Virus record (IMG/VR): IMGVR_UViG_3300037295_000263
Location: 152,705 to 216,704 of that record
DNA from: a virus
Taxonomy: Duplodnaviria > Caudoviricetes
Length of the DNA stretch: 64,000 nucleotides
Strand: one strand, 5' to 3'
Made by a program: the position numbers and the translations under genes
Shown: positions 21,048 to 33,971 of the stretch, piece by piece
Layout of the letters: every line of letters begins with the position of its first letter
How positions within the stretch are numbered: position 1 is the first letter of the stretch
The notes under the pieces: generated by a model
What the model saw: only the letters and a program-made list of their open reading frames with translations
What the model was told of the DNA's origin: nothing
Database searches by the model: none

Positions 21048-22319
21048 TTAAGGATTGATTGCGTACAACGGCATTGCGTATAGAGTTGATCCTACTTTTA
21101 TTTTTACAAAAGCTGTAGGACCGCTGTTATTTACTTGTCCACTACCAGAACCAGCAACTACTAAATTTCGGTCATTAAGACTTATAATTTGATCTGATCC
21201 AATTATAAGACCTGTTCGCATAACGCCTGTTGGGTCGTTAGTGTTTATTTCGAATCTTCCAGGAGTTGTACTAGTTTGATTGTTGCCGTCTACTGCAACT
21301 TGTATATCCGCAAGCATTGAAAAATTACTGCTGTTATCATATCCGCCCCATACAAAATTAAATACCCGCTGATTTGCTACTAACGGTCCAGGATTTTCAA
21401 CAGTGTTAGATCCGGTAACAAATAATGATGAGTTAGCAATAGGAGTATTATTGGCGCTTTCTATGCTGAAAATATCATAGTCAACGTTAGGACTATTATT
21501 AACAATCTTTATTCCAGCACCGTTGCCCAAAGTGGACAATACTAAGCTGGTCGATTTAATAGTATTGTTATCGACGTCGGCAAAGACGATTCCCGATACT
21601 GCATCGACTAGAATAGTACTGGTTTGATCTAACACAGATCCAGTTAAGTCTCCGTATATTCCCCCTAGTGCAGTAATACTACTTTCACCAGAGTCTACTA
21701 TTCTATCTCCTGAGAAATCTAAAACATTTATATCGTAGCTTCCTCCAGGAATTACTCCACTTCCAGAATTAATAATTTCTCCACCGACTGTTGACCCAGT
21801 AGGCAAATTAATAGTAGAACCTGATGAATTAATTAATGCTGCATTAAGGTATATATTGTTACCTCGTAAATATAAATCTTTAAACCGATTGGTATTGTCG
21901 CCTAGATCGTAAGATGCATCCGAAAAAGGCACTATATTTGTACGAACGGTACCGTTTAATTGAAATGATTTTAATGTAGCATCGACTAGCAGATCATTGT
22001 CGTAGGCAAACAGTGATCCTTTAAATCCTCCGGTTGCTGAAATAGATCCTGAAAAATCTGTTAAATCTACCGAAGCACTAATAGTTTTCCCTACTTCATC
22101 ATACACAAAATCGATATTTGAATGAGTTCCTGTCTCGAACATCGAACCGCTAATATCCTTAACTGCGTCGTCGGATATGGAACCGGTAGTAATACCGCCG
22201 GGTGTTGAGTTATCTCCTATGTATAATAGGTTTTCTTCAGAATCGTATACTAGTTCTCCTGCAAGAGGAGTAATAGTTAGTCGTTCTGTAGTCGATCCTC
22301 GTCTGATTTGTAATGGCAT
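21048..22319 (-). CDS. Virion structural / tail-fibre-like protein
   Basis: MPLQIRRG...LAGELVYD...LYIGD N-terminus typical of phage fibres; Gly/Ser/Thr/Asn-rich; YDLG..TNRFKDLYL; upstream TAAATA. Confidence 0.7.
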   Translation of the reverse strand: MPLQIRRGSTTERLTITPLAGELVYDSEENLLYIGDNSTPGGITTGSISDDAVKDISGSMFETGTHSNIDFVYDEVGKTISASVDLTDFSGSISATGGFKGSLFAYDNDLLVDATLKSFQLNGTVRTNIVPFSDASYDLGDNTNRFKDLYLRGNNIYLNAALINSSGSTINLPTGSTVGGEIINSGSGVIPGGSYDINVLDFSGDRIVDSGESSITALGGIYGDLTGSVLDQTSTILVDAVSGIVFADVDNNTIKSTSLVLSTLGNGAGIKIVNNSPNVDYDIFSIESANNTPIANSSLFVTGSNTVENPGPLVANQRVFNFVWGGYDNSSNFSMLADIQVAVDGNNQTSTTPGRFEINTNDPTGVMRTGLIIGSDQIISLNDRNLVVAGSGSGQVNNSGPTAFVKIKVGSTLYAMPLYAINP

Positions 22320-28000: not shown

Positions 28001-29083
28001 TTAAAACGCATCGAAGTAATTGCCGTACTGCGGTGCTTTTACTTTGTCTAACACCACAGTAAATCCTTCTTGATTTGTAAACACAAAATTTCCAGTCTGA
28101 CTGTCAATTTTAACTAAGTCTATAGAATGAAATCTAGCGGCTAACCATTCGCGATCACCATCTTCGTCAAGTGTTTTTCCATGATAGTCGATTCGAACAA
28201 CACCTTGCAACGGATTGCCACTCCAACGTTGTGAATCTAAATCATCGCCCGACATTTCTTCACCATGGTGAATTAATTTAACATTATAATGATTGCCATC
28301 ATCAAATTCTGCTTTAACGTTGAGCATGCGTAGTGCATCCTGCGGACCTTCGTTGTAGCGATTCATTTCTTCAACTACGGCTTTTAACATGTCAAAGTTA
28401 AACTGTTTAAATAAAGAAGCGATTTGACACAGCTTGTCAATATGAATTTTAAGTTGATCTTTCAAGTTGTCGTTACAGTATTCTGTGATAAACTCAGCGT
28501 CAAGACCTTTGTAATCCAGCATGTAAAACAGTCGTCCAGGGCGGTTACGCATGTGTTGGTTAACACGCCATTTGTCATTACATGTCAGCACAAACAGCTT
28601 CTGGCTAGAAAACACACCGTCTAATAGAGTTAGTGCTTTTTCTTGATCCTCGTCGTCGTACACTTTTTCAAATTCGTCAAACAGCACAACACATGGCTGT
28701 TCGATAGTCTGCATAAAAGTATTAAACTTGTCACCACACCACGGAGCATTGATTACAATGCAAGGAATACTGTGTCGATCAGCAGCCACAACTGCTAAAT
28801 TCTTAGCCAATAAACTTTTTCCAGAACCTTTCTCACCAGCTAACATAACGCCTGTGCTGTTGCTACGACTCAGGAACGTGGTGAGTATACGATCTGTATT
28901 TTTATCAAGATCGCCGTACCGCTTGCCTTTGATTTCAAACGAGTCAATATGTTCAAGATACAATGGGCCGTCCATGGGTCTTTCTTTAACAACATAGTTG
29001 CCTGCTGGCAAAAGGTCGTGGATATCAACTTCTTCGTTTGAAGCTACGCTATATGTGTTGCCTGATTTGATAAAATATGACAC
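28001..29083 (-). CDS. AAA+ ATPase
   Basis: GEKGSGKS Walker A, VLFDEFEK Walker B, RNRPGR. Confidence 0.9.
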   Translation of the reverse strand: MSYFIKSGNTYSVASNEEVDIHDLLPAGNYVVKERPMDGPLYLEHIDSFEIKGKRYGDLDKNTDRILTTFLSRSNSTGVMLAGEKGSGKSLLAKNLAVVAADRHSIPCIVINAPWCGDKFNTFMQTIEQPCVVLFDEFEKVYDDEDQEKALTLLDGVFSSQKLFVLTCNDKWRVNQHMRNRPGRLFYMLDYKGLDAEFITEYCNDNLKDQLKIHIDKLCQIASLFKQFNFDMLKAVVEEMNRYNEGPQDALRMLNVKAEFDDGNHYNVKLIHHGEEMSGDDLDSQRWSGNPLQGVVRIDYHGKTLDEDGDREWLAARFHSIDLVKIDSQTGNFVFTNQEGFTVVLDKVKAPQYGNYFDAF

Positions 29084-30364: not shown

Positions 30365-30379
30365 CTGTTTAAAAATCGG

Positions 30380-30467
30380 CGGAAGGCTAGAGAGTCGAAC
30401 TCTAAAGGCGCTATTAACACTCGGCTGTTTTCAAGACAGATCCCATCACCAGTTGGGTTGGCCTTCC
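30380..30467 (-). tRNA. tRNA-Ser(TGA)
   Basis: GGAAGGC acceptor, loop CTTGAAA, long variable arm, GTTCGAC T-loop; no encoded CCA. Confidence 0.88.
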
Positions 30468-30474
30468 TTTACTT

Positions 30475-30550
30475 TGGAGTACATGACAGGAATCGAACCT
30501 GCATACACAGGATTTGCAATCCTGTCCCTAGCCTTTCGGGTCACATGTAC
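30475..30550 (-). tRNA. tRNA-Cys(GCA)
   Basis: GTACATG/CATGTAC acceptor, loop TTGCAAA, CCA end. Confidence 0.9.
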
Positions 30551-30557
30551 ATTGTTT

Positions 30558-30633
30558 TGGCATCCCCGGAAGGCCTCGAACCTTCAACCTCTGGTTTTGG
30601 AGACCAGCACTCTGCCAATTGAGCTACGGAGAT
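30558..30633 (-). tRNA. tRNA-Trp(CCA)
   Basis: AGCTCAATTGGCAGAGT D-arm, loop CTCCAAA, CCA end. Confidence 0.92.
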
Positions 30634-30639
30634 ATTGAT

Positions 30640-30700
30640 TGGTACAGCGTACGGAATTCGAACTCTCAAATACACCTTGGCAAGGTGTCAGGCGTGATAA
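30640..30700 (-). pseudogene. Broken tRNA-Gly(GCC)-like remnant
   Basis: Anticodon arm ACACC-TTGCCAA-GGTGT, TTCGAAT and CCA present; T-stem unpaired and 5' acceptor/D-arm missing. Confidence 0.6.
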
Positions 30701-30742
30701 CGATTGTGGGTTTAGTATAGCTGTTCATGATATTTCCTGTAG

Positions 30743-30843
30743 GTTATATTAAAGCACACAGTGTTTTGAGGTATTTAAACTATGCCATTGGGGTTACCAA
30801 ATTCACGAGATTCCCGTCTCGATCCTATGTGCTTTAATATAAC
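30743..30843. repeat. 16-bp inverted-repeat cassette between tRNAs
   Basis: GTTATATTAAAGCACA 30743-30758 / TGTGCTTTAATATAAC 30828-30843. Confidence 0.85.
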
Positions 30844-30884
30844 AATAATTGTACTAGGTTAACGTTGACTTGTCAACTATGTTG

Positions 30885-30960
30885 TGGTATCTCCAACCGG
30901 ATTTGAACCGGTGTGGTTCCCGTGAAAGGGGAAAATCCTAGGCCGCTAGATGATGGAGAT
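30885..30960 (-). tRNA. tRNA-Glu(TTC)
   Basis: ATCTCCA/TGGAGAT acceptor, loop CTTTCAC, GTTCAAATCC, CCA. Confidence 0.9.
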
Positions 30961-31058
30961 AATTGTTGGCTCCAAATATTAGCTTGGAACCTAGTAGACA
31001 TAAATTATGAAAATTAAAACAACTAGTTAATGAGTACGATAAGAAATAATACACTCTG

Positions 31059-31139
31059 CTCCGCCTCGAGGATTCGAACCTCGCCCTTTCGGATCTCCGG
31101 TTAACAGCCGGGTGCCTTCGCCTAGCCAGCCCAAGCGGA
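31059..31139 (-). tRNA. tRNA-Asn(GTT) with an unusually long variable arm
   Basis: TCCGCTT/AGGCGGA acceptor, loop CTGTTAA, variable region GATCCGAAAGGG, no CCA. Confidence 0.8.
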
Positions 31140-31530
31140 GCACAGTATACTGCATCGAAATAAACTTTACTTCTATTAATTATCTTGTTAAACAAGATAA
31201 AACTAATTCTTACGGTTTTACACAAGACAGGATAACCGAAAACTTGTCATATTTCCTTACGGACTTGTTTCTATTTAATTCCATTAATTATGTTGTTTCG
31301 TTATGGAACAGGCCCAACCCCGTTCATTTGCTTTTAACAAACTATGCTTACATACAGGATGATCAATCCAATCTCGTCATAGTTTAACTCGTGTACCTTG
31401 ATAGTCGACATCCAGTACAGTGAGAGTGCATTATGATATACGCCCAATTTTCCAAAACAACATAATTAATGCAATTTATCTTTAGATGAATTAAAAAATA
31501 AAATTAAAATCTGGAATCAAAAGTACATCG

Positions 31531-31603
31531 AGCGGCGTATCGGGCTTGAACCGATGACCTCTAACTTGGAAGGATAGCGTTCTACCAACTGAACTAACGC
31601 CGC
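31531..31603 (-). tRNA. tRNA-Gly(TCC)
   Basis: GCGGCGT/ACGCCGC acceptor, GTTCAGTTGGTAGAAC, loop CTTCCAA; no CCA. Confidence 0.88.
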
Positions 31604-31657
31604 TCGATGTACTCTGTTACCATTAAACTAATCCCGCATATTAATTACTATACACTA

Positions 31658-31686
31658 ATTATAAACTACTTGTTACTGTTTGTCAA
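31658..31686 (-). promoter_or_regulatory. sigma70-type promoter
   Basis: TTGACA-17-TATAAT. Confidence 0.8.
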
Positions 31687-31870
31687 CCTATTTACTACAT
31701 AAAGATTATTTAAAATGGTATCTTGTTCCCGTCCTTCGGGCCAATGTGTTGGGCTTTATTGCTCTCTACCTATTCAGCCATTCCCACCGTCGAGAGTCAG
31801 TGGGAAACATCTTAACACACCATCTGATAAAATACTAGCACTTGTAAACAAGCTCTTATCAGCAGTCAGT

Positions 31871-31959
31871 TACCATAGTAAAACATATTGTGTGCTTGCG
31901 CCCTTACTTCCAGTTCTCTGAGTTGAGTTCTTTACGTCACAATATGTTTTACTATGGTA
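31871..31959. repeat. 22-bp inverted-repeat cassette
   Basis: TACCATAGTAAAACATATTGTG 31871-31892 / CACAATATGTTTTACTATGGTA 31938-31959. Confidence 0.9.
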
Positions 31960-31961
31960 TA

Positions 31962-32057
31962 TAAGTAGTGTGGGATTCGAACCCACGGACATAATAAACA
32001 TGTATCAGCGAATTGACATTGTCAAAAGGCCGTCTTAATCCACTCGACCAACTACTC
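31962..32057 (-). tRNA. Aberrant class-II (Ser/Leu-like body) tRNA-like gene without a canonical anticodon loop
   Basis: GAGTAGT/ACTACTT acceptor, GTCGAGTGGATTAAGAC D-arm, GTGGG-TTCGAAT-CCCAC T-arm; anticodon arm expanded around TTGAC-AAT-GTCAA. Confidence 0.6.
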
Positions 32058-32062
32058 ATGTA

Positions 32063-32138
32063 CCATATTGAAACACACTACTTACGTCTTCGTGTAGAAC
32101 CAAATAACACGATATTTGGCTAATGTGTTCTAATATGG
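32063..32138. repeat. Near-perfect 15-bp inverted-repeat cassette
   Basis: CCATATTGAAACACA / TGTGTTCTAATATGG. Confidence 0.75.
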
Positions 32139-32154
32139 CGTGTACCATATACTA

Positions 32155-32183
32155 ATTATAAACTACTTTTTATATCTTGTCAA
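32155..32183 (-). promoter_or_regulatory. sigma70-type promoter
   Basis: TTGACA-17-TATAAT. Confidence 0.8.
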
Positions 32184-32200
32184 CTATAATTTAATGCATT

Positions 32201-32292
32201 TGGCGGAACGGGTGAGATTCGAACTCACGGTACGTAATAAAACGTACGACAGGTTAGCAACCTGCTGCCTTAGGCCACTCAGCCACCGTTCC
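32201..32292 (-). tRNA. tRNA-Ser(GCT)
   Basis: GGAACGG acceptor, GCTGAGTGGCCTAAGGC, loop TTGCTAA, long variable arm, CCA. Confidence 0.93.
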
Positions 32293-32503
32293 GTAAAATA
32301 TAATTATACTGTATATTTTATACAATGTCAAATTTTATAATTGACACATGCTTATTTCCGTACAAAGCTTTTGCATGTTTGATAGCTTCTTTACGATCTG
32401 CCACATGTACAATTCTACGATCTAATGCTTGTCCCATAGGAGAAATTACGTATTTGTAAAGTTGCTTTGATTCGTTCATAGTGTTTCCTTGTAAAATAGA
32501 ATT

Positions 32504-32532
32504 ATTATAAACTATTTGTTGCCGTTTGTCAA
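32504..32532 (-). promoter_or_regulatory. sigma70-type promoter
   Basis: TTGACA-17-TATAAT. Confidence 0.8.
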
Positions 32533-32537
32533 ATTGT

Positions 32538-32610
32538 TTTTAATATAGCAGTCGCTACTGGGCATTGTAACTCCGCCCATATTACAGTTAGTTGGACTGC
32601 TATATTAAAA
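32538..32610. repeat. 16-bp inverted-repeat cassette
   Basis: TTTTAATATAGCAGTC 32538-32553 / GACTGCTATATTAAAA 32595-32610. Confidence 0.85.
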
Positions 32611-32616
32611 CAAACT

Positions 32617-32692
32617 TGGTGCCGCCACGAGGATTCGAACCCCGGACATCTTCATTACAAGTGAAACACTCTACCAACTGAGCTATGGCGGC
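32617..32692 (-). tRNA. tRNA-Thr(TGT)
   Basis: GCCGCCA acceptor, AGCTCAGTTGGTAGAG, loop CTTGTAA, CCA. Confidence 0.95.
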
Positions 32693-32758
32693 AATACTGT
32701 ACAATTTTTACTACACTGTTATTGTAACACTAAAAACTTTACGTGTCAACTACTTGTT

Positions 32759-32832
32759 TGGTGGAGAATAAGAGAATCGAACTCTTAATTTCGGCATGCA
32801 AAGCCAACGTTATCCCATTTAACTAATTCCCC
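32759..32832 (-). tRNA. tRNA-Ala(TGC)
   Basis: GGGGAAT acceptor with G3:U70, loop TTTGCAT, CCA. Confidence 0.92.
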
Positions 32833-32837
32833 ATAAC

Positions 32838-32917
32838 TGGTCTCTTGTGTAGGATTCCAACCTACGTTATTCTTGGTCCCAAACCAAGTGCCATTGAGCA
32901 GACTAGGCGAACAAGAG
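32838..32917 (-). tRNA. tRNA-Pro(TGG), with non-consensus D- and T-loop bases
   Basis: CTCTTGT/ACAAGAG acceptor, loop TTTGGGA, T-loop TTGGAAT, CCA. Confidence 0.8.
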
Positions 32918-32923
32918 TAAAAC

Positions 32924-32998
32924 TGGCGACTCGTGCCGGAATCGAACCGGCGTAATAGGATAGACAATCCCACGTAATAACCTCTATACGAACGAGCC
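32924..32998 (-). tRNA. tRNA-Asp(GTC)
   Basis: GGCTCGT acceptor, loop TTGTCTA, GTTCGATTCC, CCA. Confidence 0.9.
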
Positions 32999-33007
32999 TT
33001 AAATTGT

Positions 33008-33090
33008 TGGTGGAGTATACTGGAATTGAACCAGTCGTGCCTAAGGCAGCGGAAGGCCTTCCACTGCATCACCATTGATGCTTCTACTCC
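33008..33090 (-). tRNA. tRNA-Tyr-like body with anticodon loop replaced by a 6-nt palindrome (AGGCCT)
   Basis: GGAGTAG/ATACTCC-A-CCA, GCATCAATGGTGATGC D-arm, long variable arm; anticodon arm GTGGA-AGGCCT-TCCGC. Confidence 0.7.
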
Positions 33091-33143
33091 GTAATTTTAA
33101 CACACTCTTTAGAATGTGTGTACTAAAGCAGACTAAAATGAGT

Positions 33144-33593
33144 TTATTTTAAAGGAAAGTAATCTTGGTTTGAAAATTTACTAACTAAGCTAGTTTGTCG
33201 ATTTTGTCGAGCAGGTTGTCCAGTTCCACTCTCGTCGTGGGTAAAAACACCATAAAGTCTAATTATATGCGGATTGTTACCTGATATAGAATAAAATATA
33301 CTAATATCGACAGTAAGTTTCGAATGCCGTATATTAGACCATATATTTTTGTTTTTAAACCCTTCGTCTTTTCCGTAAGGACTAGTTGGATTTTGTGATT
33401 TAAATATTAGAAATTGTTCCAAGTTATTTTTAACTTGTACATTATCTCTTTTGTCTAACAATGATTTCTTGTACAGTTCACTAATTTCGAATACAACTTC
33501 AGGTGCTGGATTAGCTACAGGCAAAGGAATCGATGGTGTTTTCTTCTTTGACGCTTCGTTAATGATATCGATATATTTACGCAAAATGCTCAT
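33144..33593 (-). CDS. Putative RelE/YafQ-like endoribonuclease toxin
   Basis: IRHSKLTVDISIFYSI..IIRLYGVFTHDE resembles the YafQ H..L..D...IY.......L...G.H core. Confidence 0.5.
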   Translation of the reverse strand: MSILRKYIDIINEASKKKTPSIPLPVANPAPEVVFEISELYKKSLLDKRDNVQVKNNLEQFLIFKSQNPTSPYGKDEGFKNKNIWSNIRHSKLTVDISIFYSISGNNPHIIRLYGVFTHDESGTGQPARQNRQTSLVSKFSNQDYFPLK

Positions 33594-33769
33594 TTTAATA
33601 AAGATTCGTTTAATGATAGAAGCTGCGATAGAGATAAGATTTCTGTCTTGGCATTGCGCGATTCTAAAATAATATTGCTCAGATCTTCCGTTGAAAAATT
33701 TGTATTATTTTCCAAGTTAGTTTGTTCACAAATTATTTTGATTTCTTTAGGTAACAAGTTAGTAGTCAT
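33590..33769 (-). CDS. Small acidic protein, putative antitoxin (MTTNLL start)
   Basis: 59 aa, upstream of and overlapping (ATGA) the toxin-like gene; own promoter. Confidence 0.4.
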   Translation of the reverse strand: MTTNLLPKEIKIICEQTNLENNTNFSTEDLSNIILESRNAKTEILSLSQLLSLNESLLK

Positions 33770-33806
33770 AATATTATTTATCCTGTAAGTTGCTATATTA
33801 GTCAAC

Positions 33807-33835
33807 ATTATAACAAACTTTATCAAGTATGTCAA
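33807..33835 (-). promoter_or_regulatory. sigma70-type promoter
   Basis: TTGACA-17-TATAAT. Confidence 0.8.
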
Positions 33836-33971
33836 GTAGCAATAATCTGCTTTAATACGCTGTAGTTTTTCACACCACAAAAGGTGTTTTCATCGTACAG
33901 GCCGCCCATTTAAAACTTTTATAGTGGTTTAAGGATCTCGTTTCCTATATCACTTTAGTGCTGCGCTAATG

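Follow-up and report, generated by a model that had tools for sequence, protein, structure and literature searches.

The window analyzed here, a stretch of 64,000 nucleotides from the phage record IMGVR_UViG_3300037295_000263, carries on its minus strand (33008-33090) an 83-nt tRNA-shaped gene of the long-armed kind, which we consider, with a probability of roughly 0.55, to be a one-off, decoding-dead allele of a tRNA-Tyr(GUA) gene that is widespread among phages. Judged from alignment and predicted fold, the element has the body of a full member of this gene family and lies where such members usually do, immediately before a tRNA-Asp gene. By the same comparison the replacement is confined to the anticodon loop, which has been exchanged en bloc for six self-complementary nucleotides; there is one further private change (C44 to U). 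The element almost certainly cannot read codons.

Structure of the element

The assignment of the element to tRNA-Tyr is based on its sequence and fold, its identity to an annotated phage tRNA-Tyr and a family alignment. Its acceptor strands (33084-33090 with 33012-33018) form six pairs and a G7/A66 mismatch, and are followed by A73 (33011) and an encoded CCA (33008-33010). The D arm (33066-33081) has a stem of four pairs and carries G18-G19, and the T arm (33019-33035) is canonical, with a T-psi-C-type loop (TTCAATT). The variable arm counts 13 nt and contains a 3-bp hairpin; the remainder of this long arm (33036-33047), a mark of class II tRNAs, was recognized from sequence, fold and the family alignment. 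The cloverleaf is also the minimum-energy fold of the element (-32.3 kcal/mol, z = -3.1; RNAfold), a value equalled by 1 of 200 shuffled sequences.

The deviation is found in the anticodon arm. A stem of five pairs (GUGGA/UCCGC) encloses six nucleotides, AGGCCU, instead of a 7-nt loop, and alignment places this hexamer (33054-33059) where the family has its invariant seven. In the minimum-energy fold the arm (33048-33065) is sealed: seven pairs are predicted (A26-U44, G-C, U-G, G-C, G-C, A-U and A-U; RNAfold), capped by GGCC, and a 12-base palindrome (33051-33062) lies within. The original prediction had described an A-CCA acceptor, a D-arm, a long variable arm, a T-arm and an anticodon arm built around AGGCCT, and both sequence and fold confirm that description. 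Its reading of the gene as non-decoding is upheld as well, as the element lacks U33, the G34-U35-A36 anticodon and the 7-nt loop, and a purine at position 37 is missing too.

ARAGORN in default mode gave no call for the element, and neither did Rfam at its gathering threshold (29 bits for RF00005). At permissive settings the best match was the tRNA-Sec model RF01852 (21.9 bits) and ARAGORN reported 'tRNA-???'. The missing call can be attributed to the loop only in part, since relatives with a normal loop are also missed or score low: default ARAGORN overlooks 108 of the 121 family copies, and the Rfam scores of normal-loop members range from 33 to 38 bits.

A phage-only family of tRNA-Tyr(GUA) genes

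The closest annotated relative of the element is the tRNA-Tyr of Limnohabitans phage DC31 (PQ492658.1, 12705-12790), with 79% identity over all 83 nt; it was the sole full-length match in a sensitive blastn search against annotated phages. The whole 5' half is identical between the two, including A8, A9, C14, G21 and the first half of the G7/A66 mismatch, which both genes share. An exact 23-nt family motif (33060-33082), comprising position 9, the D arm, position 26 and the 5' anticodon stem, was recovered in at least 120 IMG/VR contigs, which vary in size from 4 kb to 525 kb and are mostly of freshwater origin; a scan of 185,579 species genomes of bacteria and archaea gave no match. The full-length match and the motif together bear out the tRNA-Tyr type that had been proposed from the letters alone.

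The family set used below consists of the 116 complete copies among the matches listed, 60 of them unique; counted as loci the set numbers 121 (L020:4001-4086 and L021-L140 included). The anticodon loop is CTGTAAA in 102 of the complete copies and TTGTAAA in the other 14, so that all 116 have a YTGTAAA loop with a GUA anticodon, which the element lacks; positions 33-38 never vary. The ACCA end is present in 115 of 116 copies, the acceptor pairs 3:70, 4:69, 5:68 and 6:67 covary with pairing kept, and the G7/A66 mismatch is retained in 57 of the 60 unique sequences. By sequence comparison, the family is a phage-only lineage of working tRNA-Tyr(GUA) genes whose core is unusual. The element shares the family's class II variable arm, G1-C72, A73, encoded CCA and G7/A66 mismatch, and its odd core (A8, C14, G21, G7/A66) is, on the same comparison, a family trait and not a sign of decay. 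The anomaly that the original prediction had pointed out is real as far as the loop is concerned; the odd D arm and core form no part of it and derive from an ordinary tRNA-Tyr family that decodes.

Around nine of the family loci also carry a tRNA-Tyr outside the family that ARAGORN does call, in two cases directly upstream of the family member. The existence of a phage-only tRNA-Tyr lineage that is spread over many freshwater phages, and that a standard finder misses about nine times out of ten, is perhaps the more useful result of this analysis.

Orthologous loci

Five loci (L118, L129, L101, L070 and L037) reproduce the local gene order of the window, with a family tRNA-Tyr gene followed after 8-9 nt by a tRNA-Asp that is homologous to the one in the window, and in all five the loop is normal. 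More generally, the family tRNA-Tyr lies directly before tRNA-Asp in 14 of 121 loci, Asp being its commonest close downstream neighbor. A pattern derived from the tRNA-Asp recovered 79 loci; wherever a tRNA-Tyr precedes Asp among them its loop is CTGTAAA, also in sister lineages whose D arms are different. The comparison with orthologous loci for which the original prediction had called, with a normal loop in close relatives named as the outcome that would speak for an artefact or a one-off mutation, has therefore gone against it: the loop is normal in all 116 complete family copies and in the positional orthologs.

The exact variant arm was absent from metagenome contigs, and a family member with a loop of 3-6 nt was found in neither the viral nor the metagenome contig collections. 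Three matches to a 17-nt arm pattern were dismissed as chance hits in GC-rich coding DNA, and exact DNA patterns taken from the D arm, the T arm and the acceptor gave no match in viral contigs. This uniqueness was judged against collections in which the nearest protein relatives are 42-59% identical to the proteins of this phage. Relatives among the jumbo phages, found via an AAA protein (28001-29083), have big tRNA arrays that start with a tRNA-Tyr, which belongs to another lineage and for that reason leaves the orthology unsettled; when ten jumbo-phage records were searched for the DNA of the 83-nt element, no match was obtained. Considering that all relatives are normal and that a short-loop member was not encountered, the altered loop is best regarded as a one-off state of this record and not as a conserved design. 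A conserved non-decoding mimic should recur, and in the viral and metagenome collections, where the relatives are distant, the derived state was not seen a second time.

The tRNA array and its neighboring genes

The source record describes a lake phage, is 216.7 kb in size and is estimated to be 59% complete. The element heads, as its most upstream gene, a minus-strand array (30378-33090) that contains ten ARAGORN-called tRNAs and a few odd ones. The tRNA-Asp(GTC) gene called by ARAGORN at 32924-32998 (minus strand) starts 9 nt downstream of it, and the Tyr-Asp pair is conserved in other phages. Just upstream, a leader with a hairpin (33092-33136, minus strand) is 91% identical to the leaders of L033 and L061 (blastn). 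Within the 216.7-kb record, at its estimated 59% completeness, we found no TyrRS, RtcB or CCA-adding enzyme, and no other tRNA-Tyr.

Further upstream on the same strand, a sigma-70-type promoter at 33807-33835 matches the consensus perfectly (12 of 12 positions, with a TG extension), and on the basis of this consensus match it likely drives two small ORFs together with the tRNA array. Three other phages (L129:430-482, L101 and L070) have a promoter of consensus type (TTGACA, 17 nt, TACAAT) around 8 nt before the family tRNA-Tyr, an arrangement that fits strong, direct transcription at the head of the array. The two small ORFs overlap in a toxin-antitoxin-like layout, a 96-aa ORF (33590-33880, minus strand) being overlapped by the gene of a 149-aa protein (33144-33593, minus strand), which lies between the promoter and the element. 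For the latter, AlphaFold2 predicts with a pLDDT of 92.5 a RelE/YafQ/YoeB-like fold with an extra N-terminal helix and a linker; Foldseek matches it to the RelE/YafQ/YoeB fold and to the RelE-like part of Cami1, and weak sequence matches include YafQ, YoeB and HP0892. The protein family counts 265 representatives, and the relatives are at most 42% identical and reside on short contigs. The gene was absent from about 140 other loci (L002-L144). Given this absence, and given that the promoter of L129, L101 and L070 directly precedes the tRNA-Tyr, the ORF pair is an insertion specific to this phage. A functional link between the RelE/YafQ-like gene and the altered tRNA was considered and set aside, as no relation emerged and the other loci lack the gene.

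Several other members of the array are of unusual shape. The gene at 30378-30467 (minus strand) scores 47.2 bits with the Rfam tRNA-Sec model (threshold 47 bits) and is a class II tRNA-Ser(TGA) according to relaxed ARAGORN, which at default settings gives no call. Two further tRNAs exceed the usual length of their type: the tRNA-Pro at 32838-32917 (minus strand; 80 nt, anticodon at position 37) and the tRNA-Asn at 31058-31139 (minus strand; 82 nt), the variable region of which is enlarged. Elsewhere in the window, the protein encoded at 21048-22319 (minus strand) contains an Mtd_N domain (E = 2.7e-6), known from the N-terminus of the major tropism determinant; this is a hint at a target of a diversity-generating retroelement in this phage.

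Other tRNA look-alikes with a closed or odd loop

The array holds a second tRNA-shaped element (31962-32057, minus strand) with an enlarged, self-paired anticodon arm and without a CCA end; a search for it elsewhere returned matches to its T arm only. When around 2 Mb of related arrays were analyzed with relaxed ARAGORN, 64 of the 3679 calls had an odd loop, and some of these are well-formed, end in CCA and recur in more than one contig. The CCA-ended look-alikes with anticodon loops of 6 or 8 nt, each found in two contigs, stem from related freshwater phage arrays and comprise the pairs L166:4181-4266 and L218:3851-3936 (minus strand), L205:3639-3714 and L209:5673-5748, and L046:361-452 (minus strand) and L105:4895-4986 (minus strand). 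The L205/L209 look-alike is located directly before tRNA-Asp, in the slot that tRNA-Tyr occupies in other phages. The recurrence of such odd-loop look-alikes indicates that maintained non-decoding tRNA shapes do exist in this phage community.

Nature and origin of the loop change

Compared with the 60 unique family sequences, the element has private states at six of the seven loop columns and at one of the 80 other columns (Fisher p about 1e-7), a concentration that fits a block event rather than gradual decay. The other differences, namely the T5:A68 pair, A57, T60 and some bases of the variable loop, also occur in working family members. The one private state outside the loop is found at position 44 (33048), where the alignment has C in 60 of 60 unique sequences and T in the element. 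Positions 26 and 44, A and C throughout those 60 sequences, are A and T here and form a Watson-Crick pair at the bottom of the anticodon helix. Together with an A-U pair between the first and last bases of the loop, the change from C44 to U results in the 7-bp helix with its GGCC cap, and the energy of the arm is -7.0 kcal/mol, compared to -4.7 kcal/mol for the family arm. The palindromic arm is also predicted to allow pairing between two copies of the element, the gain being 20 kcal/mol versus 9 kcal/mol for a normal member (RNAcofold).

As to where the new loop came from, the 12-base palindrome has no second copy within one mismatch in the 216.7-kb record, and AGGCCT is not over-represented in the window (7 occurrences, 6.7 expected). 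In the T arm of the tRNA-Trp of the same array, a stretch of 10 nt (30567-30576, minus strand) repeats exactly the new hexamer and the four bases that follow it in the element. Arrays simulated under a first-order Markov null contained a match of such length covering the hexamer in 0.5% of cases (P about 0.005, for a comparison chosen post hoc), and the 5' junction of the putative copied patch has no microhomology. These data hint at a short patch copied from the tRNA-Trp T arm as the source of the new loop. Three other explanations were rejected. Template switching within the hairpin would, by reasoning alone, have turned the Tyr loop into CTGCAG or TTTAAA and not into AGGCCT. Mutagenesis by a diversity-generating retroelement is ruled out by the fact that non-A positions were changed too. 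Restriction-site avoidance does not agree with the expected frequency of AGGCCT, nor with that of GGCC (around 200 sites, roughly 220 expected from base composition).

Loss of decoding or a maintained tRNA shape

In the reading that we prefer, one or a few mutational events would have produced the block change, possibly by way of the patch from tRNA-Trp. The RNA would still be transcribed with the array and, its acceptor, T arm and CCA being intact, would probably still be excised by RNase P and the 3' trimming enzymes; established tRNA biology argues that these, and the enzymes that modify the T loop, should accept such an RNA. With a 7-bp arm and a GGCC cap in place of U33, GUA and A37, Tyr codons would go unread. 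The main determinants for recognition by bacterial TyrRS are A73, G1-C72 and U35 (PMC9976931), and considering that the element keeps the former two and has lost U35, it is predicted to be at best a poor TyrRS substrate. Since the altered state is conserved nowhere else, a recent loss of decoding function is the simplest explanation. Some observations do not sit easily with this reading. As no other tRNA-Tyr is present, a loss would be unbuffered within the 59% of the genome covered by the record. Every stem of the element is intact and its body shows no decay, a state compatible with a recent event as well as with ongoing selection for the shape. Moreover, the sole private change outside the loop is precisely one that extends the sealed helix, a second look-alike with a closed arm is present in the array, and odd-loop look-alikes recur in related arrays.

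The intact body, the specific remodeling of the loop, the change that extends the helix and the look-alikes are what lends some weight to a selected, non-decoding tRNA-Tyr mimic, whose body would serve as bait while the sealed anticodon keeps it out of translation. The roles named in the original prediction, a nuclease decoy or an aminoacyl donor, found no support here; the loop is normal in all relatives, and a nuclease that acts on the anticodon loop is a poor fit because the element has lost just that target. A different kind of nuclease can be envisaged: the nucleases for tRNA-Tyr characterized so far, those of Septu and the PtuAB of retron-Eco7, cut in the variable arm (PMC13096335), and phage tRNA-Tyr has been proposed as a decoy or a supplement (PMC13096335, PMC11555353). 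With tRNA-Tyr a proven target that is cut in the variable arm, a decoy that consists of the body only is conceivable, and a family that is phage-only and present in many phage types is what one would expect of a counter-defense tRNA. Against this stand the uniqueness of the state among more than 116 family copies and its absence from the viral and metagenome collections, and the possibility that the change is a templated accident. In addition, a working tRNA-Tyr can be supplement and decoy at the same time, so that there is no obvious gain from giving up decoding. We therefore regard a mimic selected as bait, for instance for a PtuAB-type nuclease, as possible but rather unlikely. Its most explicit version is more doubtful again; it is a model in which a dedicated, translation-inert tRNA-Tyr mimic would bait a nuclease or another tRNA-Tyr-binding factor, with an arm that blocks use by the ribosome and may homodimerize, and in which the element and its companion at 31962-32057 would form a deliberate 'sealed tRNA' strategy. 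If the element is maintained, it would be a decoy in the shape of tRNA-Tyr, in a field that has only recently come to recognize tRNA-Tyr as a target of Septu and retron defenses.

The remaining explanations carry far less weight. A state seen in a single metagenome-assembled record and nowhere else may be suspected of having arisen as an error of sequencing or assembly, or from a minority variant that entered the consensus of a population with a normal Tyr loop. This is nevertheless improbable in view of the clean replacement of seven nucleotides by six between family-like flanks on both sides, with no indel, chimeric junction or long inverted duplication, and in view of the second private substitution that adjoins the loop change. 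Less probable still is that the palindrome acts as DNA, as a protein-binding or recombination site inside a tRNA gene, with the RNA being incidental. The palindrome is perfect over 12 bp, unique in the record and adjoins the unique gene insertion (33144-33880), but most of its symmetry is already provided by the anticodon stem, it has no near copy in the record, and neither a recombinase nor a repeat partner was found. Unusual decoding, finally, would consist of the reading of a doublet by the 6-nt loop or of the four bases GGCC by an 8-nt loop. tRNAs with 6- or 8-membered loops can indeed shift the reading frame in laboratory systems. The loop of the element is, however, predicted to close to a tetraloop and has neither U33 nor a purine at position 37, and reading GGCC as four bases would not fuse two open frames of 100 codons or longer at any of the 200 sites of the record, which leaves this explanation with hardly any credibility. 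Should the loop change be an accident, as we think more likely, nature would here offer a clean case of a phage tRNA gene killed by block replacement of its anticodon loop, and odd-loop look-alikes in single metagenomic contigs would then require evidence of conservation before being labeled decoys.

Comparison with known systems

Relative to the family of the DC31 tRNA-Tyr, the element has kept the acceptor design with its mismatch, A8-A9, the D arm, the anticodon stem, the class II arm, the T arm and A73-CCA, and differs in having AGGCCT for CTGTAAA/TTGTAAA and U for C44. It resembles tRNA pseudogenes in being derived from a tRNA, in having lost a feature essential for decoding and in the lack of conservation of the derived state, but unlike these it has a fully intact, CCA-tailed body, and the loss took the form of a compact block replacement that resulted in a more stable hairpin. 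Other RNAs that are tRNA-shaped, reside in phage tRNA clusters and have neither a usable anticodon nor a known role are species 1 and 2 of T4 (rnaC/rnaD) and the stable RNAs of T5. The likeness is one of general description; conservation within the respective phage group sets those RNAs apart from the allele described here, which is unique.

A last comparison concerns the phage tRNAs that evade host defense, such as the tRNA-Tyr of T5 (against retron-Eco7), the tRNA-Tyr of T6 (against Septu) and the anticodon-loop variants of mycobacteriophages (PMC11555353, PMC13096335, PMC10264068). With these the element has in common that it belongs to a phage tRNA-Tyr lineage distinct from the cellular one. 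However, the T5 and T6 tRNAs and the mycobacteriophage variants keep a working anticodon in a 7-nt loop, and with it their decoding, and the element has lost both. In the defense-evading type the anticodon is kept and the positions in the loop that are relevant to the nuclease are changed (PMC10264068); the element, in which the anticodon itself is gone, is not of that type.
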